A stretch of DNA of 64,000 bases from an uncultured Candidatus Saccharibacteria bacterium (GCA_964644965.1 CAZXYN010000001.1:64282-128281), one strand, 5' to 3'. Shown: positions 22,910 through 63,284, numbered from the stretch's first letter. A program made the numbers and translations. Notes: generated from the sequence alone by a model not told the origin.

Positions 22910-24514
22910 ATGGTTCAAGACGCCCGACTTATAGAGGAGCAAAGCACTGCAAGACGTGCCCAGATTTTGGGCTTGCCATATATCAACACTACGCAGTTGC
23001 CGAATCGGCAGCTCTATCTGCAGTTTTTGAGCATACCCGAACTTCGGCAGCATCGAATGATTCCGTTGATTGTTGATCAGCGCAAAGTGACATTTGGCAT
23101 CACTAACAACACTTCTCAGCAGACCATGAAGCAAGTCGAGCAGCGATTTAGTGACTATCAGGTGACATTCGCGCTTGTTTCGGACACTAGCTACAACGAC
23201 TATATGAAGCTGTACGATCCACCCAAGCAAGTCGTCTACGAGGACATACAGCTGAGTGATACCGGTACGGAAGATTTAGTAAGCCGGGTTACTAAGATGC
23301 TGCAAGAAATTAGACCAGACGATACATTAGCTTATCTTGTCGAGCAAGCTCATAACCTAAACGCCAGTGATATTCATATCGAAACCCAAGCCGAAAATGT
23401 GCGTTTCCGCTTCCGTATAGACGGTGTGCTACATCCGATTGCAACAATTGACCACGATCGTTACCGTACGCTGCTTGGCGTAATTGCCAGTGCAGGAAAC
23501 GTTTCTAGCGCCGATCCAGAGGCTCAACAGGGTCACATATCTCAGAATCTCAAGATGGCAGACGATCGTACTGTACGAGTAAATGTACGCCTAGAAACCG
23601 TTCCGACCGTCAATGGTACAGATGTAGTCATGCGGCTATTCAATATGCAACAAGAAAATTACACGCTCGATAGACTTGGACTCAACCCCAAGGAGCGCGC
23701 AGTAGTAGATGATATTATCGCCAAACCTAGTGGACTAGTGCTGGTGGTTGGCCCGACTGGTTCTGGCAAGACAACTACCATGTACTCAATCCTAAATTCG
23801 CTCAATTCAGAAGAACGCAAGATTATAACTATCGAAGACCCTGTAGAGTATCAGTTTGGTGGTATTACTCAAATTCCAGTGGATACCAATGCTGGTGGCA
23901 ACGACGGCAGCTTTGCGGCCAAGTTGCGGGCTGTACTGCGACTTGATCCAGATATAGTGATGGTTGGAGAGATCCGCGACAACGAAACCGCCAAGACGGC
24001 TCTCCAGGCATCGCTGACAGGACACTTGGTTCTCAGTACCTTTCACGCATCATCTGCAGCTGCAGCTTTAGTTCGTATGGAAGAGATTATTGGCCAGAAC
24101 CCGCTGTTCGTATCAGCGATTAGACTTGTCATGGGTCAGAGGCTTGTGCGTAGGTTAGATGACAATCTCAAACAACAGCGTGATCCAACCGAAGCCGAAT
24201 GGCACAAAATCAAATCTGTTGTTGATTCGTTGCCGTCGAATGTCGAAAAACCACATATTGATGGACTAAAGCTCCACGAACCAGGCTCATCACCAGAAAA
24301 CCCATATGGATTTAGCGGTCAAATTGTTCTAAGAGAACAGTTTACTATGACCCCAAGTGTCAGAGAGTTGTTTGAAAAAAATTCCCATATGACAGCGCAG
24401 GCAATAGAAGCCGCTGCTGTCCAGGACGGCATGCTAACGATGGAACAAAACGGCATTATCAAAGTGATTGCCGGCGAAACAACCCTAGACGAAGTTTACC
24501 GTGTAGTAGGTTAA
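22910..24514 (+). CDS. pilB: type IV pilus / type II secretion assembly ATPase (PilB/GspE family)
   Basis: N-terminal T2SSE_N-like region, Walker A GPTGSGKTTT, Asp box and His box (LVLSTFHA). Confidence 0.85.
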   Translation: MVQDARLIEEQSTARRAQILGLPYINTTQLPNRQLYLQFLSIPELRQHRMIPLIVDQRKVTFGITNNTSQQTMKQVEQRFSDYQVTFALVSDTSYNDYMKLYDPPKQVVYEDIQLSDTGTEDLVSRVTKMLQEIRPDDTLAYLVEQAHNLNASDIHIETQAENVRFRFRIDGVLHPIATIDHDRYRTLLGVIASAGNVSSADPEAQQGHISQNLKMADDRTVRVNVRLETVPTVNGTDVVMRLFNMQQENYTLDRLGLNPKERAVVDDIIAKPSGLVLVVGPTGSGKTTTMYSILNSLNSEERKIITIEDPVEYQFGGITQIPVDTNAGGNDGSFAAKLRAVLRLDPDIVMVGEIRDNETAKTALQASLTGHLVLSTFHASSAAAALVRMEEIIGQNPLFVSAIRLVMGQRLVRRLDDNLKQQRDPTEAEWHKIKSVVDSLPSNVEKPHIDGLKLHEPGSSPENPYGFSGQIVLREQFTMTPSVRELFEKNSHMTAQAIEAAAVQDGMLTMEQNGIIKVIAGETTLDEVYRVVG

Positions 24515-24587
24515 AGACCTTACTACTGCGGTTTACCGTGTAGTAGGTTAAAGACCTTACTACTGCGGTTTACCGTGTAGTAGGTTA
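24494..24587 (+). repeat. 37-bp tandem repeat, 2.5 copies, duplicating the last 7 codons and stop of pilB plus a hairpin
   Basis: GTTTACCGTGTAGTAGGTTAAAGACCTTACTACTGCG starts at 24494, 24531 and 24568 (third copy truncated). Each full unit carries the hairpin GTAGTAGG-ttaaaga-CCTTACTAC. Confidence 0.92.
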
Positions 24588-24630
24588 GTACAGCCAAAAG
24601 CCTCAAAAATATTTAAGAATTTTGGTTGTA

Positions 24631-24644
24631 TGACAGAGTAGTAG
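24631..24644. repeat. left arm of a 14-bp perfect inverted repeat flanking the small-ORF cassette
   Basis: TGACAGAGTAGTAG is the exact reverse complement of 25505-25518. Confidence 0.9.
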
Positions 24645-24655
24645 GAGTTGAGCGG

Positions 24656-24707
24656 TGGCGGGGTGAGCGTGCCTTTGCACAAATTTAGCAAAAGCCTCAC
24701 CCCGCCA
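24656..24707. terminator. GC-rich long hairpin between pilB and the convergent small-ORF operon
   Basis: tGGCGGGGTGAG...CTCACCCCGCCa forms a 12-bp outer stem, with an inner GCCTTTGC/GCAAAAGC stem. There is no clear U-tract on either strand. Confidence 0.45.
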
Positions 24708-24712
24708 ATCGC

Positions 24713-24880
24713 TTAAGCGACCCTACTGATCCACCAGCTGTTGCACACTTCGTGCGGGCAACGGAAGAGATCCTTGCTCTTCTCGTTCTTCTTCTGCCAG
24801 AGCTCGGTGATCTTGCCACAGTCGTTGCACTGGTAGGTACCGATGAGCTTCTGGTTGAACTTTATGAACTTTCTGAACAA
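24713..24880 (-). CDS. 55-aa zinc-ribbon protein (C-x2-C ... C-x4-C)
   Basis: TTG start 6 nt after GGAGGA. Sequence is (M)FRKFIKFNQKLIGTYQCNDCGKITELWQKKNEKSKDLFRCPHEVCNSWWISRVA. It is the only plausible part of listed ORF 24713..25174. Confidence 0.5.
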   Translation of the reverse strand: MFRKFIKFNQKLIGTYQCNDCGKITELWQKKNEKSKDLFRCPHEVCNSWWISRVA

Positions 24881-25050
24881 CGAACTTCCTCCGTAGTCGG
24901 TATGATGCTTTTCAGGTATTCGTGAACCCCCATCGCCCCAAGGGCGATGAAAGATACGAACAGAATTACATGACCAGGCTGCCACATGATTGCACGAATG
25001 CTGATCACGATGAGCATCAGTCCAGTTACAGCTTGTGCAGCTCTCTTCAT
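24862..25050 (-). CDS. 62-aa two-helix membrane mini-protein
   Basis: Two hydrophobic segments (GLMLIVISIRAI, VILFVSFIALGAMGV). ATGA overlap with the upstream ORF. Confidence 0.5.
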   Translation of the reverse strand: MKRAAQAVTGLMLIVISIRAIMWQPGHVILFVSFIALGAMGVHEYLKSIIPTTEEVRCSESS

Positions 25051-25256
25051 CGATTTCTCCAGGTGAACGCCAAGTATGCTGCATAGGCAGATCCACCGGT
25101 GCTGAGAAGAAATCCGAGAATGGCTGCGTAGCGGTGGGTACTACTTGGGTACGAGCTGATGATTGCACCTGCACATCGAAATGCTACGGCTATGCCGATA
25201 ATTGCAACCAACATGAACAACGGTTCGATCTGTTTGATCTTCGAGAAGATTTTCAA
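25047..25256 (-). CDS. 69-aa two-helix membrane mini-protein
   Basis: Two hydrophobic segments. TTG start with a TTGA overlap on the upstream stop. Confidence 0.5.
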   Translation of the reverse strand: MKIFSKIKQIEPLFMLVAIIGIAVAFRCAGAIISSYPSSTHRYAAILGFLLSTGGSAYAAYLAFTWRNR

Positions 25257-25435
25257 ACTTTCTTTCCTTCTTGTTGCTTGTTGTACACGTGCACTGCGTT
25301 AAGCAAGATTGATGTAGCCATGCAAAACGCTGCGATGAACAGATAGGCAACTACACGCTGGCCTTTGAGAGCAAGGTAAATGTACTCAAATGCAGCCAAG
25401 GCGTAGCCAATACTAAGTGCAAGCACTTTATTCAT
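25253..25435 (-). CDS. 60-aa two-helix membrane mini-protein (first gene of the cassette operon)
   Basis: ATG preceded by GGGAGAAACC. Two hydrophobic segments. Confidence 0.55.
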   Translation of the reverse strand: MNKVLALSIGYALAAFEYIYLALKGQRVVAYLFIAAFCMATSILLNAVHVYNKQQEGKKV

Positions 25436-25454
25436 GGTTTCTCCCGGGCTGATT

Positions 25455-25504
25455 TTAGCTAGGTAGCAAAAACAAAAATGCTTTCATTTTTGCTACCTAG
25501 CTAA
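25455..25504. promoter_or_regulatory. perfect 18-bp inverted repeat (hairpin with 14-nt loop) just inside the right cassette boundary
   Basis: TTAGCTAGGTAGCAAAAA-14 nt-TTTTTGCTACCTAGCTAA. Lies upstream of the mini-protein operon and downstream of the malic enzyme gene. Confidence 0.6.
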
Positions 25505-25518
25505 CTACTACTCTGTCA
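25505..25518. repeat. right arm of the 14-bp perfect inverted repeat
   Basis: CTACTACTCTGTCA is the exact reverse complement of 24631-24644. Confidence 0.9.
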
Positions 25519-25688
25519 ATGTACAGGGCTTGGAGCAAAGCTCGTACAGAGACCCTATACTTTCATTATATCATACTTGTCAAGTAAAGTCAACCACACA
25601 GTGAGCTTTCGATGCTCCGCCGTAGGCGGACTAGCCTACCCTCACAAGGGGTAGACTGCTCGAAAGTCTACTACGGGGTCAATATCTA

Positions 25689-26936
25689 CTACGCTTCTGC
25701 TTGCTGGTCTGGTTGTGCTGGTAGTATCACGCTAGAAACTGCTTCTACAACCCCAGGGTCAAATGGACCAGGGATTATTTTGTCGGCAGTTGGTTCTGGT
25801 ACCAGAGCAGCCAAAGCTTTGGCGGCAGCTAATTTGTGTTCATCTGTAATCTTGGTGACGCCGTGATCAAGCGCTCCACGGAAAATTCCTGGGAAACCGA
25901 GCGAATTGTTTACTTGGTTAGGGAAATCACTGCGGCCAGTGGCCACTACTGCAGCACCAGCTTGCTTGGCAAGATCAGGTAGAATCTCTGGCTCTGGATT
26001 TGCCATCGCAAATATAATTGGATTATCGGCCATCTTAGTAATCAAATCCTGGGTCAGAAGACCTGCCTTAGATACACCTATGAATACATCGGCGCTAGTT
26101 ATGGCATGCTCTAGTGAACCATTGACGTGGTTTGGGTTGGTGAACACAAGCAATGAACGCTTTTCGTGGTTCAGGTCATCACGGTCTTTGCTCAAGATGC
26201 CCTTGCTGTCCACTACCAATATCTCGGCGTCTGTATAGAGGTCTAGTAGCTTAACGATAGCAGTACCAGCCGCACCAGCACCGACAATTACAATTCTAGA
26301 CTTATCTAGGTCGCGTCCGGTAACTTTGGCGGCGTTAATCAGACCAGCTAGCGTAACGATGGCCGTACCGTGTTGATCGTCGTGCATTACTGGTATGTTG
26401 AGCTCGGCCTTGAGTCTTTCCTCTATCTCAAAACACTTCGGTGCAGCAATGTCTTCTAAGTTTATGCCGCCGAATGACGGTGCAATTGCCTTAATTGTGG
26501 CAATTATTTCCTCTGGTTCGTGTACATCTAATACGATTGGGACGGCGTCAATGCCAGCAAAGTGCTTGAACAGCATGGCTTTGCCTTCCATGACAGGCAT
26601 AGCACCGTATGGTCCGATATCACCGAGTCCTAACACGGCCGAGCCGTCAGAAATGACGGCTACGAGGTTGTTTGTCCATGAGTAGTCTCTGAGCTGCTCG
26701 GGGTGTTCGGCGGTATATTTGGCAACACCACCGACGCCAGGGCTGTAATAGGCAGCCAGCTTCTCCTTAGAATCCACTGTGTCGCGCAGACTCGTGGTGA
26801 TTTTGCCTCTTTTCTCTTTGTGCAATTGCAGCGCGGTCTCGTATATATCCATGCTGTCTATTGTAGCCCTTTTTTTAGGTACGCGATAGGTATCATGGTC
26901 ATTGTTGTAATTTTGAAGAGTTAGTTTGTAGGTCAA
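25689..26936 (-). CDS. NAD(P)-dependent malic enzyme (short, no PTA domain)
   Basis: YSPGVGGV, VISDGSAVLGLGDIGP, NLEDIAAPKCFEIE and VVGAGAAGTA motifs. Confidence 0.9.
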   Translation of the reverse strand: MTYKLTLQNYNNDHDTYRVPKKRATIDSMDIYETALQLHKEKRGKITTSLRDTVDSKEKLAAYYSPGVGGVAKYTAEHPEQLRDYSWTNNLVAVISDGSAVLGLGDIGPYGAMPVMEGKAMLFKHFAGIDAVPIVLDVHEPEEIIATIKAIAPSFGGINLEDIAAPKCFEIEERLKAELNIPVMHDDQHGTAIVTLAGLINAAKVTGRDLDKSRIVIVGAGAAGTAIVKLLDLYTDAEILVVDSKGILSKDRDDLNHEKRSLLVFTNPNHVNGSLEHAITSADVFIGVSKAGLLTQDLITKMADNPIIFAMANPEPEILPDLAKQAGAAVVATGRSDFPNQVNNSLGFPGIFRGALDHGVTKITDEHKLAAAKALAALVPEPTADKIIPGPFDPGVVEAVSSVILPAQPDQQAEA

Positions 26937-44639: not shown

Positions 44640-46664
44640 ATGGAGATTATGGAGCTAACAAGTGTTAAGGGCGTTGGTGAGCGCACTGCTAAGCAATTCG
44701 AAGGGCTTGGCATTCGCTCAGTTTGGGATTTATTACAATATACACCAAGGGACTATCAGGACTTCAGTACAATTACTCCTGTCAGTCAGACCAAACCAGG
44801 TCTAGTGACCATCCAGGCTGTCATAAAACAAGCCAGGGGCAGGTATGTTCGACGTGGCATGCACATTACAGAAGCCGTAGCCTCAGACAAATCTGGCAGT
44901 ATTAGGCTGGTTTGGTTCAATCAACCTTATCGAGCTGACGCTTTAAAGCCAAACCAAGAGTATTTTATTACTGGTAAGCTTGAGCTAAGGGCTGGCCGTT
45001 TTGCCATATCAAGCCCAAGTGTAGAGCTTGTGAGTGAGGTTCCGGTTCATACAGCACGCATCATACCGATTTACAGACAGAATAAAAATATCAACACGCG
45101 TCTGATTCGTAAGACAATGCGTCAGGCACTCGATAGCAGTGGTGATCTGCCGCAAGTATTACCGGAGCATATTCGTACTCAGTACAAATTGCTGTCGTAC
45201 CACGAAGCGTTAGAGCAGCTGCATTTTCCAAGCTCAGTTGACCAGCTAGACGATGCCAAACGCACGATGTCATTTATAGAAGTATTTGAGCTGATGTTGG
45301 CGTCAAAGATGCTCAAAAACGAGATTGCCAGCGAATTAGCGCCAGCGATTAACTTTGATCAGACTTTGGCAAAAAAGTTCGTAGCCTCGCTGCCATTCAA
45401 ACTAACAGATGCGCAGCGCCAAGCAATGTGGCAAATTCTGCAAGATCTAGAGAAGCCAATACCCGCCAATCGCTTGTTAGAGGGTGATGTAGGCTCTGGT
45501 AAGACGGTTGTGGCGACAATGGCGGCGATCATGGCTATCAGCAACGGCTACCAAGCGATATTCCTAGCACCCACCGAACTACTGGCGCGTCAGCATGCAG
45601 ACAGCCTGCTAGAGTTGCTAGAACCGCTAAAATACGACAAACACCTCAGCTTGCTTGTCGGTAGTCTAAAAACCGCTCAAAAGAAGCTAGCACACAAACA
45701 TCTGGCTGACGGTTCGATTAAGCTGGCCGTTGGTACTCATGCGCTTTTGCAAGATTTAGAGGTGAAGAACCTCGGACTAATTATAATCGACGAACAACAT
45801 CGTTTTGGCGTAGATCAGCGCAAAAAACTGCTGAAACAATCTGGCAAAGTTCCACATGTGCTTAGCATGACAGCAACACCAATACCGCGCTCACTAGCAC
45901 TAACACTTTACGGTGAGCTTGATATTTCACTACTTGATGCTTTGCCGCCTGGTCGCAAGCCAATTGATACTAGTATTATCTCGCCCAACAGTCGTAAGAA
46001 AATGGAACAGCACATTGCTGGTGAAGCAAAGGCTGGGCATCAGGTTTACGTAGTCTGTCCGGTAATCACAGAGGACAACAAGCTCCAAACCGTTAGTGTA
46101 GAGGAGACTTACAGACGTCTAAAGACTACATTCAAAGGATTAAATGTAGGCTTATTGCACGGCAAGCTCAAACAAGACGAAAAAACCGAAATCATGGAAA
46201 AATTTGTCGCCGGTCAGATAGATGTACTGGTAGCTACCACCGTAATTGAAGTCGGCGTCAACGTGCCGAACGCCACAATTATGGTTATAGAAGGCGCTGA
46301 TCGGTTTGGCTTGGCACAATTGCATCAGCTGCGTGGTCGAGTTGGTCGTAGTAGCGATCAAGCCTATTGCTACGTAGTGCCATCTGATAGCAAAGCACCA
46401 AGCAAGCGGCTACAATCTTTTGCGCGAATTACAGATGGATTTAAACTTGCCGAGATTGATCTAGAAATCAGAGGTCCAGGCGCAATTTACGGAACGCTCC
46501 AGCATGGTGATCTAGATCTGAAGTTTGCTGATCTAACAGACCACAAGCTAATTGCAAATGCCAGAAAAGCCGTAGATGAATTTGTAGGTACCGATTCACT
46601 AGATTCTTACCCAGAGCTTGGGCGTAGAGTGCGGGTCGCCCAGGCAGTGATTACTCTTAATTAA
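44640..46664 (+). CDS. recG: ATP-dependent DNA helicase RecG
   Basis: Wedge domain, GDVGSGKTVVA, DEQHRFG and QLRGRVGR. Confidence 0.95.
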   Translation: MEIMELTSVKGVGERTAKQFEGLGIRSVWDLLQYTPRDYQDFSTITPVSQTKPGLVTIQAVIKQARGRYVRRGMHITEAVASDKSGSIRLVWFNQPYRADALKPNQEYFITGKLELRAGRFAISSPSVELVSEVPVHTARIIPIYRQNKNINTRLIRKTMRQALDSSGDLPQVLPEHIRTQYKLLSYHEALEQLHFPSSVDQLDDAKRTMSFIEVFELMLASKMLKNEIASELAPAINFDQTLAKKFVASLPFKLTDAQRQAMWQILQDLEKPIPANRLLEGDVGSGKTVVATMAAIMAISNGYQAIFLAPTELLARQHADSLLELLEPLKYDKHLSLLVGSLKTAQKKLAHKHLADGSIKLAVGTHALLQDLEVKNLGLIIIDEQHRFGVDQRKKLLKQSGKVPHVLSMTATPIPRSLALTLYGELDISLLDALPPGRKPIDTSIISPNSRKKMEQHIAGEAKAGHQVYVVCPVITEDNKLQTVSVEETYRRLKTTFKGLNVGLLHGKLKQDEKTEIMEKFVAGQIDVLVATTVIEVGVNVPNATIMVIEGADRFGLAQLHQLRGRVGRSSDQAYCYVVPSDSKAPSKRLQSFARITDGFKLAEIDLEIRGPGAIYGTLQHGDLDLKFADLTDHKLIANARKAVDEFVGTDSLDSYPELGRRVRVAQAVITLN

Positions 46665-46711
46665 GTTACCAAAGGCGATTTTTGGACAGAACTAGACTAT
46701 AATAGAGTCAA

Positions 46712-47530
46712 ATGTACTCTGGACTCGTCCTAACAAAATATTCCGGACAATTAATGGGCGCGCATCAAAAGATTGACCGCGTCGCTCGTCGTCACCTGTC
46801 AGAACTTATAAAAACCGACGGTGGGTTTCCTAGTACCAAAGAAATCTTGCAGTTCGAGGGCAAAAACGGTCCGGACGGCATGAAGCGAAAGAGCCCTGGT
46901 TATGACGAGCCATGGCATTTTCTTGATCCTCTCAGTGGTGAAACAAGTGAGTTTCTCGAGATAATCGATGACCATTACAATGCTCTAGTCAAATATCTGA
47001 AGTCCGGCAATCAAGAACGAGCAGCTTTTGAGGCGGCTTGGTTAGCTCACGCTATAGTCGACGGATTAACGCCAGCCCACCATTACCCATATGAGCAACA
47101 TATTGAGAAACTTCGTGATGGCCAGGGTAAGGACAGTCGCAACAGCGTGTTTGACAAGCTTATTTTCAAGGGTGACAAGCCGTCGAGTACTTTAGTGAAC
47201 ACCGCCAAAGCCTACAGTCCCAAGGGCCCGCTAACAGCACATGTGGCCTTCGAAATGGGCTTCACGCTTTTGATTCGGCCTTTGCGTCTGCCTGATGCAC
47301 GACCAGCCGAGCGTGACATGGTAGAGATTGAAGAGCGTGGTTACAGAGGTTATTTTATGAATCGTGCTAGGGAAATTGCAGTACTGGGGTTATTCGAGCG
47401 CTATCTCAAGAATGGTTGGACGCCAAAACTTAGTAACGAAATGCGACATAAGCTGGCACCAACTATGGTAAAGACTGTAACTGTGCTGTGGTATGCAGCA
47501 GCTCTAGAGGCAGGCACATGCGAGTTATAG
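46712..47530 (+). CDS. hypothetical protein (His-rich putative metal site)
   Basis: 272 aa with HQKIDRVARRHL, WHFLD and WLAHAIVDGLTPAHH. The family is not confidently recognised. Confidence 0.5.
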   Translation: MYSGLVLTKYSGQLMGAHQKIDRVARRHLSELIKTDGGFPSTKEILQFEGKNGPDGMKRKSPGYDEPWHFLDPLSGETSEFLEIIDDHYNALVKYLKSGNQERAAFEAAWLAHAIVDGLTPAHHYPYEQHIEKLRDGQGKDSRNSVFDKLIFKGDKPSSTLVNTAKAYSPKGPLTAHVAFEMGFTLLIRPLRLPDARPAERDMVEIEERGYRGYFMNRAREIAVLGLFERYLKNGWTPKLSNEMRHKLAPTMVKTVTVLWYAAALEAGTCEL

Positions 47531-48054
47531 CCGGCAAACTTGGTGGCCGCAACTTTGAATCTGTTCATGGCCATCGCACACACCCGATGAGTGAGAAAAT
47601 CCGCGGTGCGCTATTTAATGCGCTGGGTGATATCAATGGACTCGATGTATTAGATCTGTACGGTGGCACCGGTGCGCTGAGTTTCGAGGCAATCAGCCGC
47701 GGAGCAGCTAGCGCAACTGTAATTGACGCAGACGCCAAGGCTCGCACTCAAATCATCCGAAACCGAGAATTACTGCAGATACCAGAAGACCAAGTCACTG
47801 CCGTGCGCGCCCATGCACATGCCTGGAGTCGACGACATCAGAACCAGCAGTTTGATATTGTCTTGCTTGATCCACCATATGACGCAGTCGAGCCCAAGGA
47901 ACTAATCCTGCTGACCAAACATGCCAAACCAGGTGGGTTGATTGTGCTGTCGCTGCCGCCAAACACCGGTTTCAAATACGCCGAAAGTCGCCAAGAATTA
48001 CTATCTCAAAAGACTTATGGTGACGCCGAGCTGCATTTTTATCGCCAGCTTTAG
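47518..48054 (+). CDS. rsmD: 16S rRNA (guanine966-N2)-methyltransferase RsmD
   Basis: MRVIAGKLGGR, VLDLYGGTGALSFEAISRGA and DPPY. 13-nt overlap with the upstream ORF. Confidence 0.85.
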   Translation: MRVIAGKLGGRNFESVHGHRTHPMSEKIRGALFNALGDINGLDVLDLYGGTGALSFEAISRGAASATVIDADAKARTQIIRNRELLQIPEDQVTAVRAHAHAWSRRHQNQQFDIVLLDPPYDAVEPKELILLTKHAKPGGLIVLSLPPNTGFKYAESRQELLSQKTYGDAELHFYRQL

Positions 48055-48058
48055 TGGC

Positions 48059-48676
48059 TTAATGGCTAGCTTTTTTTATCTCTTGGTAGCGAATCGGAAT
48101 CGCCAGCGAATAGATCATACCTAGGACTGCACTAATGGCTGCCCCGACTGGTCCAACAATGCCAAACACAACAATCAGAAATGTTACGGCGATAATGTCA
48201 TAAATCCGCCAGCTATGAGGCTTTGTCTGAGCGGCAGATAGTTCCATAGCTGCCCAAATTTTCATGTCCTTTTCTACTAGATAAAACGGCGCCAGAATGT
48301 AGCGCCTCATGAATATAAATCCAGGGATAATAAACAGTAGCAAGCCGCCGATAATGATTAGACCAGTCAGCAGTACTAGCCCGAGTAGTCGCCAAAAATA
48401 GCGGTATGAGCCGTCAAAGGCTTGTTGCAAAGTCATAATCTGACCCTTGCTGGTGTGAATATAAAGCTTTGTTAGCGGTGGCAATAGAGCAATGGTCAGC
48501 AGCCCGCCCAAGAGCCTAACTATATTCGGTCCAGATTCGTATATAGACACCTGGCCGATAGTTACTAAAATTCCAGGCAAAACCAACAACACGAAATAAG
48601 GCACCAAGTTGTCGCGAATTATCCTGATACTTGGTTCAAATAGATCAAACGCACTCTTGAACTGTGGCTTTGTCAT
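48059..48676 (-). CDS. polytopic membrane protein, unknown function
   Basis: 205 aa with about 5 hydrophobic helices. Confidence 0.5.
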   Translation of the reverse strand: MTKPQFKSAFDLFEPSIRIIRDNLVPYFVLLVLPGILVTIGQVSIYESGPNIVRLLGGLLTIALLPPLTKLYIHTSKGQIMTLQQAFDGSYRYFWRLLGLVLLTGLIIIGGLLLFIIPGFIFMRRYILAPFYLVEKDMKIWAAMELSAAQTKPHSWRIYDIIAVTFLIVVFGIVGPVGAAISAVLGMIYSLAIPIRYQEIKKASH

Positions 48677-48784
48677 ATCTCCTCCGTTTGTACATACTAT
48701 AGCCTTTTTGGGCGCTTGCCAGCAAAGATATGTACAAAAACCGCCAAAACTGCTAAAATCAATCTGTTAAATCAAATTCAATCT

Positions 48785-48868
48785 GCGGACGAGTGGTGGT
48801 TCGCTGTACAGCGGATGGTAGAGTTCCCCCGTAGTATCCTGTAAGGATTACTATCGGGGCACGCTAGT
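48785..48868 (+). pseudogene. relic 5' half of a tRNA-Leu gene (positions 1-31) carrying three insertions
   Basis: GCG[ga]CGAGTGGTGG[ttcgctgtacagcgga]TGGTAGA[37-nt hairpin]CACGCTAGT is collinear with the intact tRNA at 48962. Confidence 0.7.
48793..48822 (+). repeat. 30-nt perfect direct repeat, copy 1 (tRNA-Leu D-arm with a 16-nt palindrome in the D-loop)
   Basis: GTGGTGGTTCGCTGTACAGCGGATGGTAGA is identical to 48904-48933. Confidence 0.95.
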
Positions 48869-48903
48869 TCCCGTAGTAAAATGAATTTGTGGCTGATGGG
48901 GAT

Positions 48904-48933
48904 GTGGTGGTTCGCTGTACAGCGGATGGTAGA
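48904..48933 (+). repeat. 30-nt perfect direct repeat, copy 2
   Basis: Identical to 48793-48822. Flanks extend the tRNA D-arm homology (GAtGTGGTGG...TGGTAGACA). Confidence 0.95.
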
Positions 48934-48961
48934 CATTTAACAAGTAGTAAAGTTTTTGGAT

Positions 48962-49046
48962 GCGCGAGTGGTGGAATTGGTAGACACGCTAGTCTTAGGA
49001 ACTAGTGCCTCACGGCGTGAAGGTTCAAGTCCTTTCTCGCGCACCA
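48962..49046 (+). tRNA. tRNA-Leu, anticodon UAG, class II with long variable arm, CCA encoded
   Basis: Manual cloverleaf: acceptor GCGCGAG/CTCGCGC, D-arm GTG-GAATTGGTAGA-CAC, anticodon arm CTAGT-CTTAGGA-ACTAG, variable arm tGCCtcacGGCgt, T-arm GAAGG-TTCAAGT-CCTTT, then A-CCA. Confidence 0.92.
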
Positions 49047-49106
49047 AAACTTTTACTTCTTGTCGCTAGTCCCAGCAGTAAGCACTATGTGCTACTACTG
49101 GGCATA

Positions 49107-49233
49107 CTTAGGAACTAGTGCAGCAATGCGTGAATGGTCGTAATCTGCCTGTGGCAGATTACGTTTTCCTTGCTTGGCCGTCACAGAAATTTTAATTTCT
49201 GCTGACGCAAGTATAAAACAAGTCCTTTCTCGC
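49107..49233 (+). pseudogene. relic 3' part of a tRNA-Leu gene, split by about 97 nt of foreign hairpin-rich sequence
   Basis: CTTAGGAACTAGTGC (49107-49121, tRNA positions 32-46) and CAAGTCCTTTCTCGC (49219-49233, T-loop to acceptor 3' strand) are exact matches to the intact gene. Confidence 0.7.
49139..49167 (+). terminator. rho-independent terminator-like hairpin downstream of tRNA-Leu
   Basis: CGTAATCTGCC-tgt-GGCAGATTACG (11 bp, perfect) followed by TTTT. Confidence 0.6.
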
Positions 49234-49304
49234 ATTTGGTGCTAAAATGAGTTCTAGCGTGGGCAAAACTTCACCAAGCAAGACATATGGGAGGCACTTT
49301 TTAG

Positions 49305-49862
49305 ATGAAAGTTTCAGAGCAAAAGCAGCTTTTATCAGCAGTAGAAGTGGGTGGGTGGAAGCTAGAACATGACAAAGAAAAGGCTATTGTAGTGGCTGGT
49401 TCACTGTTGGCAGAACAAGTAGCCAGGCTGGTTGAGGTGGTGCCAATACGCGGCGAAAGAAAAGGTGTGATTTGGGACCTGATAGATCAGGATAAAACTA
49501 CTGGCAAATCATTGCTGTTCAGTTTGCGTACAGACTCGTATAATAAAAAGGGTCTGGCTGATTATAAAGAAATTGATCTAAGGATAGGCCAAGGTGTACA
49601 AATTGACGGTGAACCTTATAAATTGGATACTATTGTTCTTTGCGAAGATTTTAGGCGCAATCTGACTTTTGTCGGAGGTCGCAAGATACAGCACTGGGGT
49701 AACCAAGGTATCCGTGGTTTGTTTGCTGCACCAGCGGTTCCAGAGGAGCTGCCAGTATACGATACGGTTGATGATTTCCTACCTGATTTGGAAACACTCT
49801 GCCCAATTACCGGAGAAGGAATCGCAGATAAGCTAGCCAGGTCGTTCCACAGCGTTGAATAA
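49305..49862 (+). CDS. hypothetical protein
   Basis: 185 aa with a GGGAGG Shine-Dalgarno upstream. No motif recognised. Confidence 0.5.
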   Translation: MKVSEQKQLLSAVEVGGWKLEHDKEKAIVVAGSLLAEQVARLVEVVPIRGERKGVIWDLIDQDKTTGKSLLFSLRTDSYNKKGLADYKEIDLRIGQGVQIDGEPYKLDTIVLCEDFRRNLTFVGGRKIQHWGNQGIRGLFAAPAVPEELPVYDTVDDFLPDLETLCPITGEGIADKLARSFHSVE

Positions 49863-49910
49863 TTGCTATGGCACTTATGCTATACTGACTCCAACAAGAG
49901 GGAGCAATTT

Positions 49911-50489
49911 ATGGCCAAAGACATACAATTTGTTGAGCAGCCCGGCGAACGCACAGGTAGCAAGATACATGTTAACGAACGAGAAGAATTTTTTGCAGCG
50001 CTTGAACGCGCCGAGAGCTTGGTCAAGGGCGAATCACCCAGGGCAAAGGTGTTAATCTACGTGGCAGCAATCGAACGCAGCCTACAGGAAGTGCTGCGTA
50101 ATGTCATGGTGCCGAGCAACCAAAAAGAAGACACTCTGCTCGGTAGCGCCATCAGCACGTTCGAATCACAGATTGATCTGGCTTTTCGCATCGGTGTGAT
50201 TAGTCATAATCTATGGCGTGATCTGCACATCTTGCGCGAGTTGCGTGATGATTGCTTTGGCCGTATAGAAAACTTCAGCTTTGAGCACTCGGCTATCAAG
50301 TCCAGTGTAGCTATGCTAGAGCGCAACGTTGGCAAACAAGCATTTACCGGATTACCAGTGCTACGCATGGACACAGAGGACAAGTTTGCATTCCTGGCGC
50401 GTACATTCCTGGTCACTATAGACAATGTACAGGAAAAGGTCGGTAGACTAAGCGAAGCCAAGGTAGAAAAGCTCTATCGTGACGACTAG
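49911..50489 (+). CDS. hypothetical helical protein with a degenerate MtlR/HEPN-like C-terminal pattern
   Basis: ATG at 49911 after GGGAG. FESQIDLAFRIGVISHNLWRDLHILRELRDDCFG resembles the F..I.L....G.I......L..LR..RN..aH pattern, but RN/H is replaced by RD/F. Confidence 0.45.
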   Translation: MAKDIQFVEQPGERTGSKIHVNEREEFFAALERAESLVKGESPRAKVLIYVAAIERSLQEVLRNVMVPSNQKEDTLLGSAISTFESQIDLAFRIGVISHNLWRDLHILRELRDDCFGRIENFSFEHSAIKSSVAMLERNVGKQAFTGLPVLRMDTEDKFAFLARTFLVTIDNVQEKVGRLSEAKVEKLYRDD

Positions 50490-50503
50490 TGTGATAAATA
50501 TCA

Positions 50504-50532
50504 TTGATTTGTATTGACAAGTGTGGTATAAT
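50504..50532 (+). promoter_or_regulatory. strong sigma70-type promoter (TTGATT-17 nt-TGgTATAAT), near-duplicate of the module at 7494
   Basis: ttgatttgtattgacaagtgtggtataat shares TTGACA-n-GTGTG-n-TATAAT-n-TATAC with 7503-7528. Confidence 0.5.
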
Positions 50533-50562
50533 ATACAAAAGTAGGGTCAGATAGACCAGTAA

Positions 50563-50591
50563 ACGTCAGATGTAGTAATCTGGCGTTTTTT
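50563..50591 (+). terminator. rho-independent terminator about 30 nt downstream of the 50504 promoter and upstream of hisS
   Basis: ACGTCAGAT-gtagta-ATCTGGCGT (9 bp including one G-U) followed by TTTTTT. Confidence 0.7.
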
Positions 50592-50624
50592 ATACCCTTA
50601 AAATCCCGTATAATAAACTTAACT

Positions 50625-51941
50625 ATGAAGCTATCAACCCAGAGCTATAAAGGCGCGCGTGATTTCTACCCAGAGGACATGCGCGTGCGCAATAGTGTGT
50701 TTGCGTCCTGGCGCCAGGTTTGCCAGAGCTTTGGTTATGAAGAATATGATGCACCAATAATTGAGCCTGTAGAGTTATTTGCAGCCAAATCTGGTGATGA
50801 ACTAGTCAACGAACAGTCTTATAACTTCACCGATCGCGGTGGCCGCGAAATTATGCTGCGACCAGAGATGACACCGAGCGTATCTAGGCTAGTGGCTGGT
50901 AGGCGACAGGAATTGCCGTTGCCGATTCGCTGGTTTTCTATTCCGTCGTGCTGGCGTTATGAGCGACCACAAAAGGGTCGTGGACGTGAATTCTACCAGC
51001 TAAATGTAGATTTGTTTGGTGTAGACAGCGTTGAAGCAGAAATTGAGATGATACAGATAGTTGACGCTGTCATGAAGTCGTTCCAGGCTAGGCCTGAAAT
51101 GTACGAAATACGCGTCAACAGCCGCAACTTTATGAATTACCTGCTAGGCGACTGGCTAGGACTTAATGAGGTTGAGCAAAAGACGATATCACGGCTAATC
51201 GACCGCATGCACAAGCTTCCTGGGCCAGAGTTTGTTGGTCTGATTGAGGCGTCGATTCCGCCAACTCTGCGTGAGCAAGGCGCTGCTCAGAAACTACTAG
51301 ATGTTTTACAGGTAAAGAAACTAGACGAACTGCCAGAAGATTTGCGTGTATCTGAACCTGTCAAAAACATGGTATCTATCATTGAAAAGATTGAAACAGC
51401 TGGCATTAGCAATCTGGCCTTTGACATCACCCTAATGCGCGGGCTTGATTACTACACTGACTTTGTGTTTGAGGTGTTTGATACCAATCAGGACAATAAC
51501 CGCTCGATGTTTGGCGGCGGCCGCTACGATGGGCTGGTTGGGCTGTTTGGTGTCGAGCCGATCCCGACTGTTGGCTTTGCCATGAGTGATGTAATGCTGA
51601 TGGAATTTCTAAAGGGCTGGAATCTTGTGCCAGACGCAAGAACAGATACAGAAGTAGTGGTAATACCAATTGGCGATGTTATGGATCAGGCGCAAAAGAT
51701 TGCAGCCGAACTGCGTGAAATGAGTGTGAATGTAGCATTAGATATTACTAATCGCAAAACTGACAAACAGCTCAAAAATGCTATAAAATCAGGTGTTGCC
51801 TACGTGCTGTTTGTAGGCGAGCAAGAGATTGAATCTGGCCAGTACAAACTCAAGGATATCAGGACCAGTACCGAACAAACTCACTCCATCCAGCGGATTG
51901 TTAGCATTATAAAGGACCGTAGGAAGCAAGGCGGTGTTTAG
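50625..51941 (+). CDS. hisS: histidine--tRNA ligase
   Basis: MLRPEMTPS (motif 1 region), RWFSIPSCWRYERPQKGRGREFYQLNVD (motif 2), GGGRYDGL (motif 3) and an anticodon-binding C-terminus. Confidence 0.95.
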   Translation: MKLSTQSYKGARDFYPEDMRVRNSVFASWRQVCQSFGYEEYDAPIIEPVELFAAKSGDELVNEQSYNFTDRGGREIMLRPEMTPSVSRLVAGRRQELPLPIRWFSIPSCWRYERPQKGRGREFYQLNVDLFGVDSVEAEIEMIQIVDAVMKSFQARPEMYEIRVNSRNFMNYLLGDWLGLNEVEQKTISRLIDRMHKLPGPEFVGLIEASIPPTLREQGAAQKLLDVLQVKKLDELPEDLRVSEPVKNMVSIIEKIETAGISNLAFDITLMRGLDYYTDFVFEVFDTNQDNNRSMFGGGRYDGLVGLFGVEPIPTVGFAMSDVMLMEFLKGWNLVPDARTDTEVVVIPIGDVMDQAQKIAAELREMSVNVALDITNRKTDKQLKNAIKSGVAYVLFVGEQEIESGQYKLKDIRTSTEQTHSIQRIVSIIKDRRKQGGV

Positions 51942-52185
51942 CTATGCGCCAATCGAGTTATCACTTCTAGAATTATTTTTCTTCTTTCTGGCTGTGTCTC
52001 TGCCATTCTTTTTTATAGCTGGGGTAATCTTATTCGTTATTATTAAGCTGCGTGAGCCTAAAGCTGTTCAAGAGTCCCAACCCGTTGCAAGTATTAAAAA
52101 GCCTCGTGCATTTATCGCACTGTGCACTGCGCTGCTGTTTTTGTTAGGGCTAGGCGTGCTTATGGTTTTTATCGGAAATCTTTGA
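51934..52185 (+). CDS. small two-helix membrane protein
   Basis: 83 aa with a GTG start overlapping the hisS end. Two hydrophobic segments. Confidence 0.4.
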   Translation: MFSYAPIELSLLELFFFFLAVSLPFFFIAGVILFVIIKLREPKAVQESQPVASIKKPRAFIALCTALLFLLGLGVLMVFIGNL

Positions 52186-52226
52186 GCTGTGGAAAAACAA
52201 CAGACAATCTGTTAGAGTAGGTACCT

Positions 52227-53510
52227 ATGCATATAACTCGAACCAATTCAGAACCAACCAAGACAAAACTAATCATCAGGGCTGATGAAAAGGAGTTAGC
52301 AAGCGCCAAGAAGCTGGCACTCAATCATCTGTCATCTCAGGTCAAAGTTCCTGGCTTCCGCGAAGGCAAAGTGCCCATCAGTGTGGTAGAAAAAAATGTA
52401 GATCAAAATGCCTTACAATCAGAGGTAATCGAGCACACTATTAACAATCTGTATGCTACCGCGGTACGTGAAGAAAATTTGCGACCAGTGGCCAATCCGC
52501 AAATCGCAATCAAGAAGTTCGTACCATTTACAGAGCTAGAATTTGAAGCAGACATAGATGTAATTGGCGAGATTAAGCTTGCTGACTACAAGAAGATCAA
52601 GCTAGCCAAGGAACCAGTCAAGGTAGAGGCCAAAGACATTGATAATGTCATTAAGTCGCTACAAGCTCGGGCTGCACAGCGCAAAGACGTTACTCGAGCA
52701 GCCAAGAACGGCGATGAAGTTACAATTGATTTCAAGGGTACAGACGCCAAGGGCGAATCGGTTCAGGGTGCTGATGCTGCAGACTACCCGTTGATACTTG
52801 GCAGCAATGCTTTTATTCCTGGATTTGAGGAAGAAATTGTAGGACTTAAGGCTGGCGACAGCAAAGAGTTCAAGGTGACTTTTCCGAAAGATTATGTTGC
52901 CAAGGCTCTTCAGAACAAGAAAGTCACCTTCGCTGTCACCGTACATAAGATCGCAGAACTGGTAGAACCAAAGGTAGATGATGAATTTGCAGCCGCCGTC
53001 GGACCATTCAAATCTGTCAAAGAGCTAAAAGAAGACATCAAAAAGCAACTAGTCTTTGAGCGCGAACGTGACGAGACCAACAAATACGACAATGAACTGC
53101 TAGAAAAGATTGCCAGCAAATCTAATATTGAGATTCCGAAAATGCTGGTCGATGAGCAGATCGACAGAATCGAACAAGAAGAAAAACAAAACCTAATGTA
53201 CCGAGGCCAAACCTGGGAAGAACACCTGAACGAAGAAGGCATCACGGCTGATGAGCACCGCGAGCAAAAGCGCCCAGCAGCCGAGCTACGGGTAAAGATC
53301 GGTGTTCTATTATCTGAGGTAGCAGAAGCCGAAGGCGTACAAGTCACTCCAGAAGAAGTAGAAGTTCGCTTGCAGCTAATGAAGGGCCAATATCAAGACC
53401 CTACCGCTCAAGAAGAGCTAAGCAAGCCAGAGGCAATCCGTGATATTGAGACCCGTATTCGTACCGAAAAAACCCTAGAAAAACTACGCAATTATGCCGG
53501 GGCTAAATAA
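52227..53510 (+). CDS. tig: trigger factor
   Basis: VPGFREGKVP ribosome-binding motif, a central FKBP-like domain (DFKGTDAKGE...) and a C-terminal helical arm. Confidence 0.9.
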   Translation: MHITRTNSEPTKTKLIIRADEKELASAKKLALNHLSSQVKVPGFREGKVPISVVEKNVDQNALQSEVIEHTINNLYATAVREENLRPVANPQIAIKKFVPFTELEFEADIDVIGEIKLADYKKIKLAKEPVKVEAKDIDNVIKSLQARAAQRKDVTRAAKNGDEVTIDFKGTDAKGESVQGADAADYPLILGSNAFIPGFEEEIVGLKAGDSKEFKVTFPKDYVAKALQNKKVTFAVTVHKIAELVEPKVDDEFAAAVGPFKSVKELKEDIKKQLVFERERDETNKYDNELLEKIASKSNIEIPKMLVDEQIDRIEQEEKQNLMYRGQTWEEHLNEEGITADEHREQKRPAAELRVKIGVLLSEVAEAEGVQVTPEEVEVRLQLMKGQYQDPTAQEELSKPEAIRDIETRIRTEKTLEKLRNYAGAK

Positions 53511-55676: not shown

Positions 55677-55692
55677 TCCGCTGTACAGCGGA
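55677..55692. repeat. 16-nt perfect palindrome TCCGCTGTACAGCGGA, 121 nt upstream of rpoB
   Basis: The same 18-mer AATCCGCTGTACAGCGGA recurs at 63267-63284. A variant, TTCGCTGTACAGCGGA, occurs at 48800 and 48911. Confidence 0.95.
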
Positions 55693-63268: not shown

Positions 63269-63284
63269 TCCGCTGTACAGCGGA
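63269..63284. repeat. 16-nt perfect palindrome TCCGCTGTACAGCGGA, 90 nt downstream of rpoC
   Basis: Identical to 55677-55692. Confidence 0.95.

Follow-up and report, generated by a model that had tools for sequence, protein, structure and literature searches.

Short inverted repeats with a GTAGTA core recur around a tRNA-Leu gene in the 64,000 nt of DNA analyzed here (the window), which raises the question whether they mark a dispersed family of mobile elements or a history confined to this locus. The original prediction, made from the sequence alone, was a family of miniature inverted-repeat elements, or a shared recombination site, marked by this core. If true, this would have suggested that mobile DNA is active in a CPR genome of very small, reduced size.

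Genomic Setting and Assembly Support

The window is Saccharibacteria (CPR) DNA: the best matches of its HisRS (50625–51941) were in Candidatus Saccharibacteria genomes, with 75% identity to that of the closest relative (locus L001) and at most 56% to all other relatives in scans of genomes and metagenomes. The same scans, with nothing above these 75% and 56% values, yielded no strain variants or close relatives by which the events described below could be ordered. The proteins flanking the locus had matches only in contigs 100% identical to the window, and their next homologues were at most 49% identical. The ORFs of the window are housekeeping genes, and Pfam scans of the ORFs in the 64 kb found no transposase, integrase, RAYT, Y1_Tnp-type or Y1/HUH domain. 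ARAGORN and Rfam detected a single tRNA in the 64 kb, a tRNA-Leu with the anticodon TAG, placed in the order UPF0259 membrane protein (minus strand), tRNA-Leu(TAG), hisS that is common to many relatives.

In Logan assemblies of three sequencing runs, contigs were 100% identical to the window across 45059–48997 and 48980–52862. These contigs stop within the tRNA, and each half of the mosaic was confirmed independently; the contig ends probably result from k-mers in common with other Saccharibacteria of the samples. Since both halves of the locus were 100% identical in the assemblies of all three runs, an assembly artifact could be ruled out. Short-read assemblies break within the tRNA-Leu locus.

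Anatomy of the tRNA-Leu(TAG) Locus

The features of the locus are listed in Table 1. The leader ATCTGTTAAA is common to the window and to the clean locus of the closest relative. Fragment A comes after the promoter-like site. Its acceptor strand has a 2-nt GA insertion compared to the working gene (TGCG[GA]CGAGTGGTGG), and the fragment is interrupted both by the palindrome TTCGCTGTACAGCGGA in its D loop and by the hairpin H1. Downstream of the orphan hairpin arm TCCCGTAGTAA there is a diverged copy of the leader and then fragment B, which shares 30 nt at 100% identity with fragment A (48793–48822 in the latter), palindrome included. The acceptor sequence of fragment B, GGGGATG, resembles the GCGGATG type found in the closest relative. 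Other repeats within the locus are the duplicated leader (AAATTCAATCTG / AAAATGAATTTG) and a stretch of 15 nt, reaching from T loop to acceptor, at 100% identity. On the 3′ side of the working gene, fragment D is 82% identical to it over 33 nt, and the pairing of its variable arm has been kept through a compensatory change. The terminator-like hairpin at 49139–49163, with a perfect 11-bp stem, a ΔG of −11.7 kcal/mol and a z-score of −8.7, is the only terminator-like site of the region.

Table 1. Features of the tRNA-Leu(TAG) locus and the distant copy of the motif, with positions counted from the first nucleotide of the window.
Feature	Position	Strand	Description
Promoter-like site	48731–48759	+	TGTACA-17-TAAAAT with TG extension, from a consensus scan; upstream of the entire tRNA locus; putative function
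Decayed tRNA-Leu 5′ fragment A	48785–48868	+	Acceptor strand, D arm and 5′ strand of anticodon stem; two inserts
16-nt palindrome TTCGCTGTACAGCGGA	48800–48815	.	In place of AAT in D loop of fragment A; second copy at 48911–48926
37-nt insert holding hairpin H1	48823–48859	+	CCCCGTAGTA / TACTATCGGGG; stem-loop 48827–48859
Direct-repeat copy 1	48862–48879	+	CGCTAGT (anticodon-stem strand) and orphan left hairpin arm TCCCGTAGTAA
Decayed tRNA-Leu 5′ fragment B	48898–48935	+	Includes palindrome 48911–48926; truncated in D arm
Left arm of inverted repeat around working tRNA	48941–48959	+	CAAGTAGTAAAGTTTTTGG; 19-nt repeat
Working tRNA-Leu, anticodon TAG	48962–49046	+	ARAGORN; Rfam RF00005, 58.1 bits
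Right arm of inverted repeat around working tRNA	49044–49062	+	CCAAAACTTTTACTTCTTG; 19-nt repeat
Direct-repeat copy 2	49064–49081	+	CGCTAGT and left arm of H2 (CCCAGCAGTAA)
Hairpin H2	49071–49102	+	Inserted between anticodon stem and loop of fragment D; followed by CATA
Decayed tRNA-Leu fragment D	49107–49138	+	Anticodon loop, 3′ anticodon stem, variable arm, 5′ T stem
T-loop insert, 80 nt	49139–49218	+	Terminator-like hairpin 49139–49163 and TTTT, then conserved TTGCTTGGCCG block
3′ end of decayed copy	49219–49234	+	CAAGTCCTTTCTCGCA; equals working gene minus 2 nt; without CCA
Isolated CCCCGTAGTA	25669–25678	−	3′ non-coding region of malic-enzyme gene; chance-level match to H1

When the four inserts were removed, ARAGORN folded the outer sequence into the cloverleaf of a tRNA-Leu(TAG), in which the D, anticodon and variable stems were intact. 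Only five of the seven pairs formed in the acceptor stem of this reconstructed copy; compared to the working gene, its 5′ strand is 2 nt longer and its 3′ strand 2 nt shorter, and there is no native CCA. The outer copy is thus a pseudogene. For annotation, the consequence is that tRNA finders report one gene here and overlook approximately 370 nt of tRNA-derived debris.

Hairpins H1 and H2

The segment at 48823–48859 had been described as a 37-nt insertion forming a hairpin, and relative to the working tRNA it is exactly that, a bulged hairpin with the arms CCCCGTAGTA.../...TACTATCGGGG. Folded as DNA, the H1 stem-loop had a ΔG of −9.6 kcal/mol (z = −4.5), and H2 had a ΔG of −9.1 kcal/mol (z = −2.7). 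The lower stems of the two match (CCCCG.TAGTA in H1 and CCCAG.CAGTA in H2), whereas the upper stems are unlike yet paired (TCCT/AGGA and GCAC/GTGC, respectively), and both have loops of 3 nt. Each breaks into a loop of tRNA-Leu-like sequence, and a third, orphan left arm lies at 48869–48879. H1 and H2 are two related hairpins; they are hairpins throughout, not elements with distinct termini, and the GTAG inside the stem of H1 is replaced by GCAG at the equivalent position of H2.

The region from the orphan arm to the end of H2 had also been proposed to be a 238-bp insert with terminal inverted repeats. The two sequences in question are present, TCCCGTAGTA at 48869–48878 and TACTACTGGG at 49093–49102, but TACTACTGGG matches its own local left arm CCCAGCAGTA (49071–49080) at nine of ten positions, compared to eight of ten for the distant TCCCGTAGTA, and the local pairing produces H2. 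A better parse of the region is an imperfect direct repeat of 18 nt, CGCTAGTTCCCGTAGTAA (48862–48879) and CGCTAGTCCCAGCAGTAA (49064–49081), 83% identical, followed by the local hairpin H2. This direct repeat brackets a 202-nt block that includes the working tRNA, and could represent a recombination junction.

In all, there are two right arms of the motif and three left arms, and bases of a tRNA stem (GAGTT, TAGTT and TAGT) stand before each of the latter. It seems that the hairpin arm was copied along with its flank: the left arm (A)GT(T)CCC(C)G.AGTA would be found three times because it was copied with the preceding bases of the tRNA stem (TAGT or TAGAGT).

The flanks of the inserts, read directly, showed no target-site duplication at H1 (GGTAGA on the left and CACGCT on the right), at H2 (CGCTAGT and CATACTTAGG) or at the D-loop palindrome (GTGGTGG and TGGTAGA). 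Short-word BLAST and fuzzy and regular-expression patterns were used to look for further copies of H1, H2, their flanks and spacers and the inverted repeat in the 64-kb window and in 167 related loci from genomes and metagenomes (1.9 Mb), and none were found.

Distribution of the Motif in the Window

The exact sequence CCCGTAGTA occurs three times in the window (48828+, 48870+ and 25669−), compared to 0.10 occurrences expected from shuffles, and two of these three copies are only 42 nt apart, within one duplicated stretch. When one mismatch was allowed, the count was no more than chance: a search over the whole window gave 11 occurrences with 6.5 expected, and five of 100 shuffles reached 11. 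The copy near 25.67 kb had been taken as a link to a second locus. The sequence CCCCGTAGTA is indeed found there on the minus strand, at 25669–25678 rather than 25671–25680 (2 nt off), but it is a chance-level match. The window holds 3387 different 9-mers that are present at least three times, and 101 of 619 10-mers taken from the tRNA locus are found again in other parts of the window, compared to 104 ± 14 for random 628-nt regions. Since this recurrence equals that of random regions, the distant copy is uninformative.

GTAGTAG itself is enriched in the window (19 occurrences versus 5.5). The suggested bias towards non-coding DNA is present in the counts, with 15 of 52 copies of GTAGTA in the 8% of the sequence that is non-coding (3.5-fold), but 12 of these 15 fall into just two loci, 24515–25688 and 48677–49304, each with its own local duplications. 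A paired inverted arrangement, which a family of inverted-repeat elements would display, was not borne out: within 40 nt, exact GTAGTA...TACTAC pairs are confined to the tandem repeat of pilB, and GTAGTA ranks 39th of 4011 hexamers in this test, which is not significant.

The first of the two loci lies between pilB and the malic-enzyme gene. Both repeats predicted there were confirmed, namely the 14-nt inverted repeat TGACAGAGTAGTAG at 24631–24644 and 25505–25518, and, at the 3′ end of pilB, a 37-nt tandem repeat (2.5 copies, 100% identical) with a GTAGTAGGT/ACCTTACTAC hairpin. The pattern T[GT]AC-N3-GTAGTAG is found six times between the two genes: three copies are in the pilB tandem repeat, one is the left 14-nt repeat and two are inverted. 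The isolated CCCCGTAGTA belongs locally to this group. The tandem repeat duplicates the last codons of pilB (...YRVVG stop); GTAGTAG encodes Val-Val-Gly in pilB and overlaps a double TAG stop at the malic-enzyme gene. No known RNA family matched the region from 24.5 to 25.7 kb. This locus has its own duplication history, and its link to the tRNA locus is one shared 10-mer, the number expected by chance. Phage and defense libraries, searched with the small ORFs adjoining both loci, gave one weak PHROG match of unknown function and nothing else.

The 16-nt palindrome is the sole element of the tRNA locus that recurs elsewhere beyond chance. Perfect copies (TCCGCTGTACAGCGGA) are found at 55677–55692, upstream of rpoB, and at 63269–63284, downstream of rpoC, making four copies in 64 kb compared to 0.12 expected, all of them non-coding. 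This palindrome bears on the possibility that H1, H2 and perhaps the palindrome itself are tiny palindromic mobile elements of the REP/REPIN/MITE type, with single-stranded or hairpin-loop DNA as their targets and with a mobilizing enzyme whose gene lies elsewhere in the genome. Such an origin would agree with its frequency, with the 3.5-fold enrichment of GTAGTA in non-coding DNA, with the position of every insert in tRNA loops, and with the form of H1 and H2, which are imperfect palindromes of 32–37 nt with related lower stems, unlike but pairing upper stems and GTAG within the arm. It appears quite improbable, however, given that there are two full copies only, within 280 nt, that target duplications are lacking, that neither the window nor the relatives yielded another copy, that the window encodes no Y1/HUH transposase, and that the non-coding enrichment comes from two loci with internal duplications of their own while the inverted-pair test was not significant.

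In REP families, the copies are dispersed and number tens to hundreds, they frequently form inverted doublets, and the RAYT gene is flanked by REPs. The inserts described here are similar to REP and REPIN elements, which are associated with RAYT transposases (Bertels and Rainey 2011; PMC3116915), in being non-coding, imperfect palindromes of 30–40 nt with GTAG, but they number two, both in one locus, the window holds no RAYT gene, and GTAG lies within the stem rather than 5′ of it. With MITEs they share a short length, a non-coding location and, as originally proposed, terminal inverted repeats. A MITE-type family with a GTAGTA core is nevertheless not supported by the data: there are no target-site duplications, no dispersed multi-copy family in the window or the 1.9 Mb of related loci, and no parent insertion sequence or transposase in the window; inverted pairs are confined to the pilB repeat, and the supposed 238-bp element is better read as a direct repeat with a local hairpin. 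Thus, the original prediction survives in a local sense only, as related hairpins and a possible recombination junction, and not as a dispersed family. In 2008, Elhai et al. reportedly described small dispersed repeats of heterocystous cyanobacteria that reach hundreds of copies per genome. Like the inserts seen here, these are approximately 20–30 nt long, partly palindromic, and nested in each other and in conserved RNA genes; unlike them, they are from another phylum, and only the 16-nt palindrome is dispersed in our case (four copies in 64 kb). The cyanobacterial repeats are also mentioned in PMC5861425.

tRNA-Leu Loci in Other Saccharibacteria

The closest relative has the same gene order as the window, with a clean, plain tRNA followed by a terminator. 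Partial copies of tRNA-Leu adjoin the gene in eight of approximately 22 Saccharibacteria loci (the window, L006, L013, L014, L018, L019, L089 and L092). The partial copy is in tandem in L089, while L006, L013, L014 and L018 have a 3′ fragment (CAAGTCC...CCA) with an insert before it. The copy in L092 is near-complete, with 55 nt identical to the working gene of the same locus and an interruption in the T loop, and that in L019 is interrupted in the anticodon loop. Our search of the literature turned up no account of rearranged tRNA-Leu genes, or of inserts in tRNA genes, for Saccharibacteria or CPR.

The T-loop insert of the window is homologous to the inserts of L006 and L013 (nhmmer E-value of about 1e-24) and absent from the closest relative. 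A second type of insert (X) is found in L014, L018, L019 and L092, where it begins with GAGAACTGCC-AGT-GGCAG directly after GGT. In an alignment of these four sequences, from which the structure itself was derived, the X inserts have a common secondary structure of 35 pairs with 93% of the cells paired. Tested on the same four-sequence alignment, this structure has 13 compensatory pairs, compared to 6.4 ± 1.5 in shuffles and 1–4 when the partners were slid. A covariance model of the X inserts detected no new convincing copies, and the insert of the window was not detected by it either. Ends of the IS200/IS605 type were considered for the X inserts and rejected, as the left and right hairpins are unrelated, with no clean insertion junction and no transposase.

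We considered the possibility that the hairpins act at the RNA level, either as elements for processing or stability of the tRNA precursor or as intervening sequences of a tRNA-Leu-like RNA that still functions despite several interruptions. The promoter-like site and one terminator enclose the whole locus, and the predicted 405-nt transcript folds with a z-score of −5.6. The leader-trailer duplex of the working tRNA (−17.5 kcal/mol) is the strongest among 20 loci, and analogous stems with different sequences surround tRNA-Leu in L010 and L089. The inserts leave the stems of the cloverleaf untouched, and those in the tRNA-Leu copies of relatives keep their common structure through compensatory changes. 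Against this, a functional tRNA with introns should yield an intact cloverleaf upon removal of the inserts, and the outer copy, with its broken acceptor stem (5/7) and lack of a native CCA, did not. H1 and H2 are conserved in no relative, and their 3-nt loops and long perfect stems are atypical of RNA hairpins. Rfam gave only tRNA, both at the gathering threshold in the window and at E-values up to 10 in the locus and L018, with no group I or group II intron, known ribozyme core or other family in the inserts of either. In addition, a tRNA-splicing endonuclease is not known from bacteria, which counts against an RNA-level role as well. Taken together, we find such a role hardly probable at all. 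A cyanobacterial origin of the sequence, with a group I intron in tRNA-Leu, was rejected, as the proteins and related loci belong to Saccharibacteria and Rfam found no intron.

The relatives also bear on the nature of the 18-nt repeat. The locus may be a recombination scar, in which a segment with its own tRNA-Leu (48880–49063, comprising fragment B and the working gene) was inserted near the anticodon loop of a resident gene, with the direct repeat (CGCTAGT + CCC.G.AGTAA) as the core common to both junctions. The insertion would have disrupted the resident gene (A and D), the incoming copy would have taken over its function, and the rest of the element would have been lost. Consistent with this, the block is bracketed by the repeat, fragments A and D minus their inserts make up one tRNA-Leu-like gene, and both carry a 2-nt indel and have the same acceptor type as the inner gene. 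Furthermore, the gene content between tRNA-Leu and hisS differs among relatives, and the 3′ 21 nt of tRNA-Leu (CAAGTCC to CCA) are repeated exactly beside the gene in relatives, like an attachment site. We nevertheless regard a scar as unlikely. There is no integrase, phage or plasmid gene in the window, and the “element” would be a mere 202 bp. The repeat takes in the arm of H2, which implies that the target gene was already broken, and fragment B, which carries a copy of the resident leader and 30 nt identical to A, fits internal duplication better than foreign DNA. The block had no match elsewhere in the window or the 1.9 Mb of related loci, and viral contigs searched with patterns from the neighboring insert gave no matches.

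Two known systems resemble such a scar. In 2002, Williams reportedly distinguished sublocation classes of the attachment sites that integrative elements use in tRNA genes. The present locus shares with such sites the partial copies adjoining an intact gene and the breaks in the anticodon-loop and T-loop regions, in addition to the 3′ repeats of the relatives. However, no integrase or island is present, the gene is flanked on either side by fragments that hairpins interrupt, and the bracketing repeat of the window is made up of the 5′ anticodon-stem strand and a hairpin arm rather than the 3′ end of the tRNA. Where an attachment site would have repeats bracketing an integrase-bearing element, the imperfect 18-nt repeat brackets only a tRNA and a tRNA fragment. 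The second system is the tRNA-dependent lysogeny of actinobacteriophages, in which a disrupted resident tRNA is found beside an inserted intact one (Guerrero-Bustamante and Hatfull 2024; PMC10865867). The topology fits, with a broken outer copy and an intact inner tRNA-Leu(TAG) of the same isotype and anticodon and a short shared junction core. The differences are that the insert here is 202 bp long and has no phage genes, that the target already held a hairpin insert, and that there is no sign of a role for an integrase, nor is there a prophage in the window.

A further observation concerns the 5′ ends of the copies. An identical 11-mer, GCGGACGAGTG, opens the decayed copy in the window and that in L019, although the working tRNA of L019 is of the other acceptor type. 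We could not account for this shared 5′ end by independent decay; it speaks for a common paralogue or the transfer of a segment rather than for decay in place. This leads to a reading that we offer as a long shot: a second tRNA-Leu-like paralogue, marked by GCGGACGAGTG in the window and L019, may stand beside tRNA-Leu(TAG), with loops, not stems, being the preferred targets of small inserts. Those inserts would comprise X after GGT in the T or anticodon loop (L014, L018, L019 and L092), the T-loop inserts (window, L006 and L013), and H1, H2 and the palindrome, a grouping that seems no less doubtful. If the paralogue reading were true, it would imply a new class of loop-targeting mobile hairpin DNA, or bacterial tRNA intervening sequences. 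For the GCGGACGAG-type copies, an old paralogue and horizontal transfer are alternative origins.

Discussion

We give about an even chance to the explanation that the motif is a by-product of serial local duplication of tRNA-Leu, followed by decay, at a hot spot, rather than the mark of a dispersed element. The working gene (48962–49046) is ringed by pieces of further tRNA-Leu copies: A and B are 5′ parts, B being the shorter, and D begins with the anticodon stem and continues up to the 3′ end. Short hairpin or palindrome inserts sit in the loops of these dead copies, namely the D-loop palindrome, H1, H2, and, in the T loop, an insert with what appears to be the terminator hairpin of the operon at its start. 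The copies may have arisen through replication slippage, template switching or unequal recombination between the tRNA repeats, and the reverse-complement copies of the motif are simply the opposite arms of the same hairpins. The whole stretch is probably transcribed, from the promoter-like site at 48731–48759 to the terminator at 49139–49163, and the inner tRNA alone is likely to be matured, a process that the 19-nt leader-trailer stem may aid. H1 and H2 themselves are most likely without function.

Several results speak for duplication: a single tRNA was detected, repeats abound within the locus, H1 and H2 have no copies elsewhere, the distant k-mer is at the chance level, and there is no transposase or integrase. 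Dispersed copies are lacking, and partial tRNA-Leu copies recur in relatives. The support from the Logan assemblies, the clean locus of the closest relative and the partial copies in eight of approximately 22 loci are also in favor. Other results speak against it. All four inserts are at loops or at the borders between stem and loop, and none are in stems; by our estimate, this would happen by chance in approximately 3% of cases if 41% of the positions were unpaired. In the dead copy, pairing persists in the stems and in the variable arm, unlike what purely neutral decay would predict. Finally, GCGGACGAGTG is shared with the distant L019, and L006 and L013 carry homologues of the T-loop insert, which is missing from the closest relative.

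For specialists, the points of interest are the conserved structured inserts in the relatives and the odd 5′ end that two distant genomes have in identical form. Apart from these two points, which could make it more than that, the locus is of a familiar kind: debris derived from tRNA genes, with palindromic inserts, where a tRNA locus is prone to rearrangement. The evidence is insufficient for a MITE family or a shared recombination site, and with it for active mobile DNA in this genome. What stays is a well-documented tRNA locus that has repeatedly gathered partial copies of itself, and this is a recurrent property of the tRNA-Leu(TAG)-hisS neighborhood across Saccharibacteria.

Acceptor-stem types and shared ends of tRNA-Leu copies

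Among the tRNA-Leu(TAG) genes of 20 Saccharibacteria loci, two acceptor-stem types, GCGGATG/CATCCGC and GCGCGAG/CTCGCGC, both occur. The working gene of the window is of the GCGCGAG/CTCGCGC type, while the GCGGATG/CATCCGC type is carried by the closest relative (L001) and by fragment B, a decayed tRNA-Leu copy beside the working gene, in the form GGGGATG. This mismatch may mean that the resident gene was replaced. An identical 11-mer, GCGGACGAGTG, which corresponds to the GCGCGAG acceptor type with a GA insertion, opens decayed tRNA-Leu copies in both the window and L019, the locus of a distant Saccharibacteria relative (HisRS 49% identical). The working tRNA of L019 has the GCGGATG acceptor type, unlike the GCGCGAG type of its decayed copy.

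Inserts and palindromes in decayed copies

Partial tRNA-Leu copies in the loci of four relatives are broken by a structured insert of 85-190 nt that immediately follows GGT. The interrupted loop is the T loop in three of these loci and the anticodon loop in the fourth. The ends of the insert are conserved (GAGAACTGCC-AGT-GGCAG ... GGGGTCGCGGRAYGTGAC) and its internal helices are maintained through compensatory changes; a search of Rfam gave no matching family.

A 16-nt palindrome, TCCGCTGTACAGCGGA, occurs four times in the window, compared to 0.12 expected, and all four copies are non-coding. Two, both of the TTCG variant, lie within the D loops of dead tRNA copies, and the others flank genes outside the tRNA locus. 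No copy was found in 1.9 Mb of related loci. The palindrome may serve as an operator site; alternatively, it may be a very small palindromic insert.

Coordinates of the features described (window positions unless a related locus is named)
Feature	Position	Remark
Palindrome copy	48800-48815	tRNA fragment
Palindrome copy	48911-48926	tRNA fragment
Palindrome copy	55677-55692	upstream of rpoB
Palindrome copy	63269-63284	downstream of rpoC
Structured insert	L014 7114-7230	
Structured insert	L018 8839-9065	
Structured insert	L019 925-1030	
Structured insert	L092 45-165	
Shared 11-mer	48785-48795; L019 894-904	
Fragment B acceptor sequence	48898-48904	
pilB-like gene	22910-24514	
37-nt tandem repeat	24494-24587	
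14-nt inverted repeat	24631-24644 / 25505-25518	
Diverged third copy	25668-25681	165 nt farther along
Malic-enzyme 3' region	25590-25700	minus strand
Contig ends	48980-48997	
Variable slot	49305-50489	

Repeats elsewhere in the window

The 9-mer CTTGCTTGG has eight sites in the window, compared to 0.8 expected, mostly within genes (one is at 49169-49177). A strong 9-mer excess over shuffles can occur here without any repeat element, which calls for caution in judging the recurrent 10-mer inverted-repeat motif with a GTAGTA core proposed in the original prediction.

A perfect 14-nt inverted repeat, TGACAGAGTAGTAG, encloses ≈860 bp with four small minus-strand ORFs (153, 61, 68 and 59 aa), which matched no Pfam, PHROG or PADLOC family except a weak zinc ribbon. 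There is a diverged third copy, TGACCCCGTAGTAG, and T[GT]AC-N3-GTAGTAG occurs in six copies in total within 1.2 kb.

For the non-coding region 3' of the malic-enzyme gene, the predicted fold is branched (RNA dG -44.6 kcal/mol, z -3.7): besides a basal stem, it has two GC-rich hairpins, CCGCC-GUA-GGCGG and CUACCC-...-GGGUAG. Rfam gave no matching family.

At the end of the pilB-like gene, a 37-nt unit is repeated 2.5 times with 100% identity, and every unit forms the hairpin GTAGTAGGT/ACCTTACTAC. The gene's stop codon and final 19 nt lie inside the first unit. The sequence of the third, partial unit suggests that the original stop was GGT TAG.

Variable slot and assembly breaks

The slot between the tRNA locus and hisS holds two ORFs, of 185 aa and, depending on the start codon, 192-208 aa. 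Neither had a family in Pfam or PADLOC, and the longer gave one weak PHROG match of unknown function. The slot adjoining the tRNA is variable: it holds a different gene in the closest relative and none in L006, another related locus.

For this genome and those of related Saccharibacteria, contigs assembled from short reads (Logan contigs L081-L086) commonly end inside tRNA-Leu. We presume that the cause is a 40-nt D-arm and anticodon-arm sequence common to co-occurring species. In metagenome bins, loci like the tRNA-Leu locus of the window will often be absent or broken.
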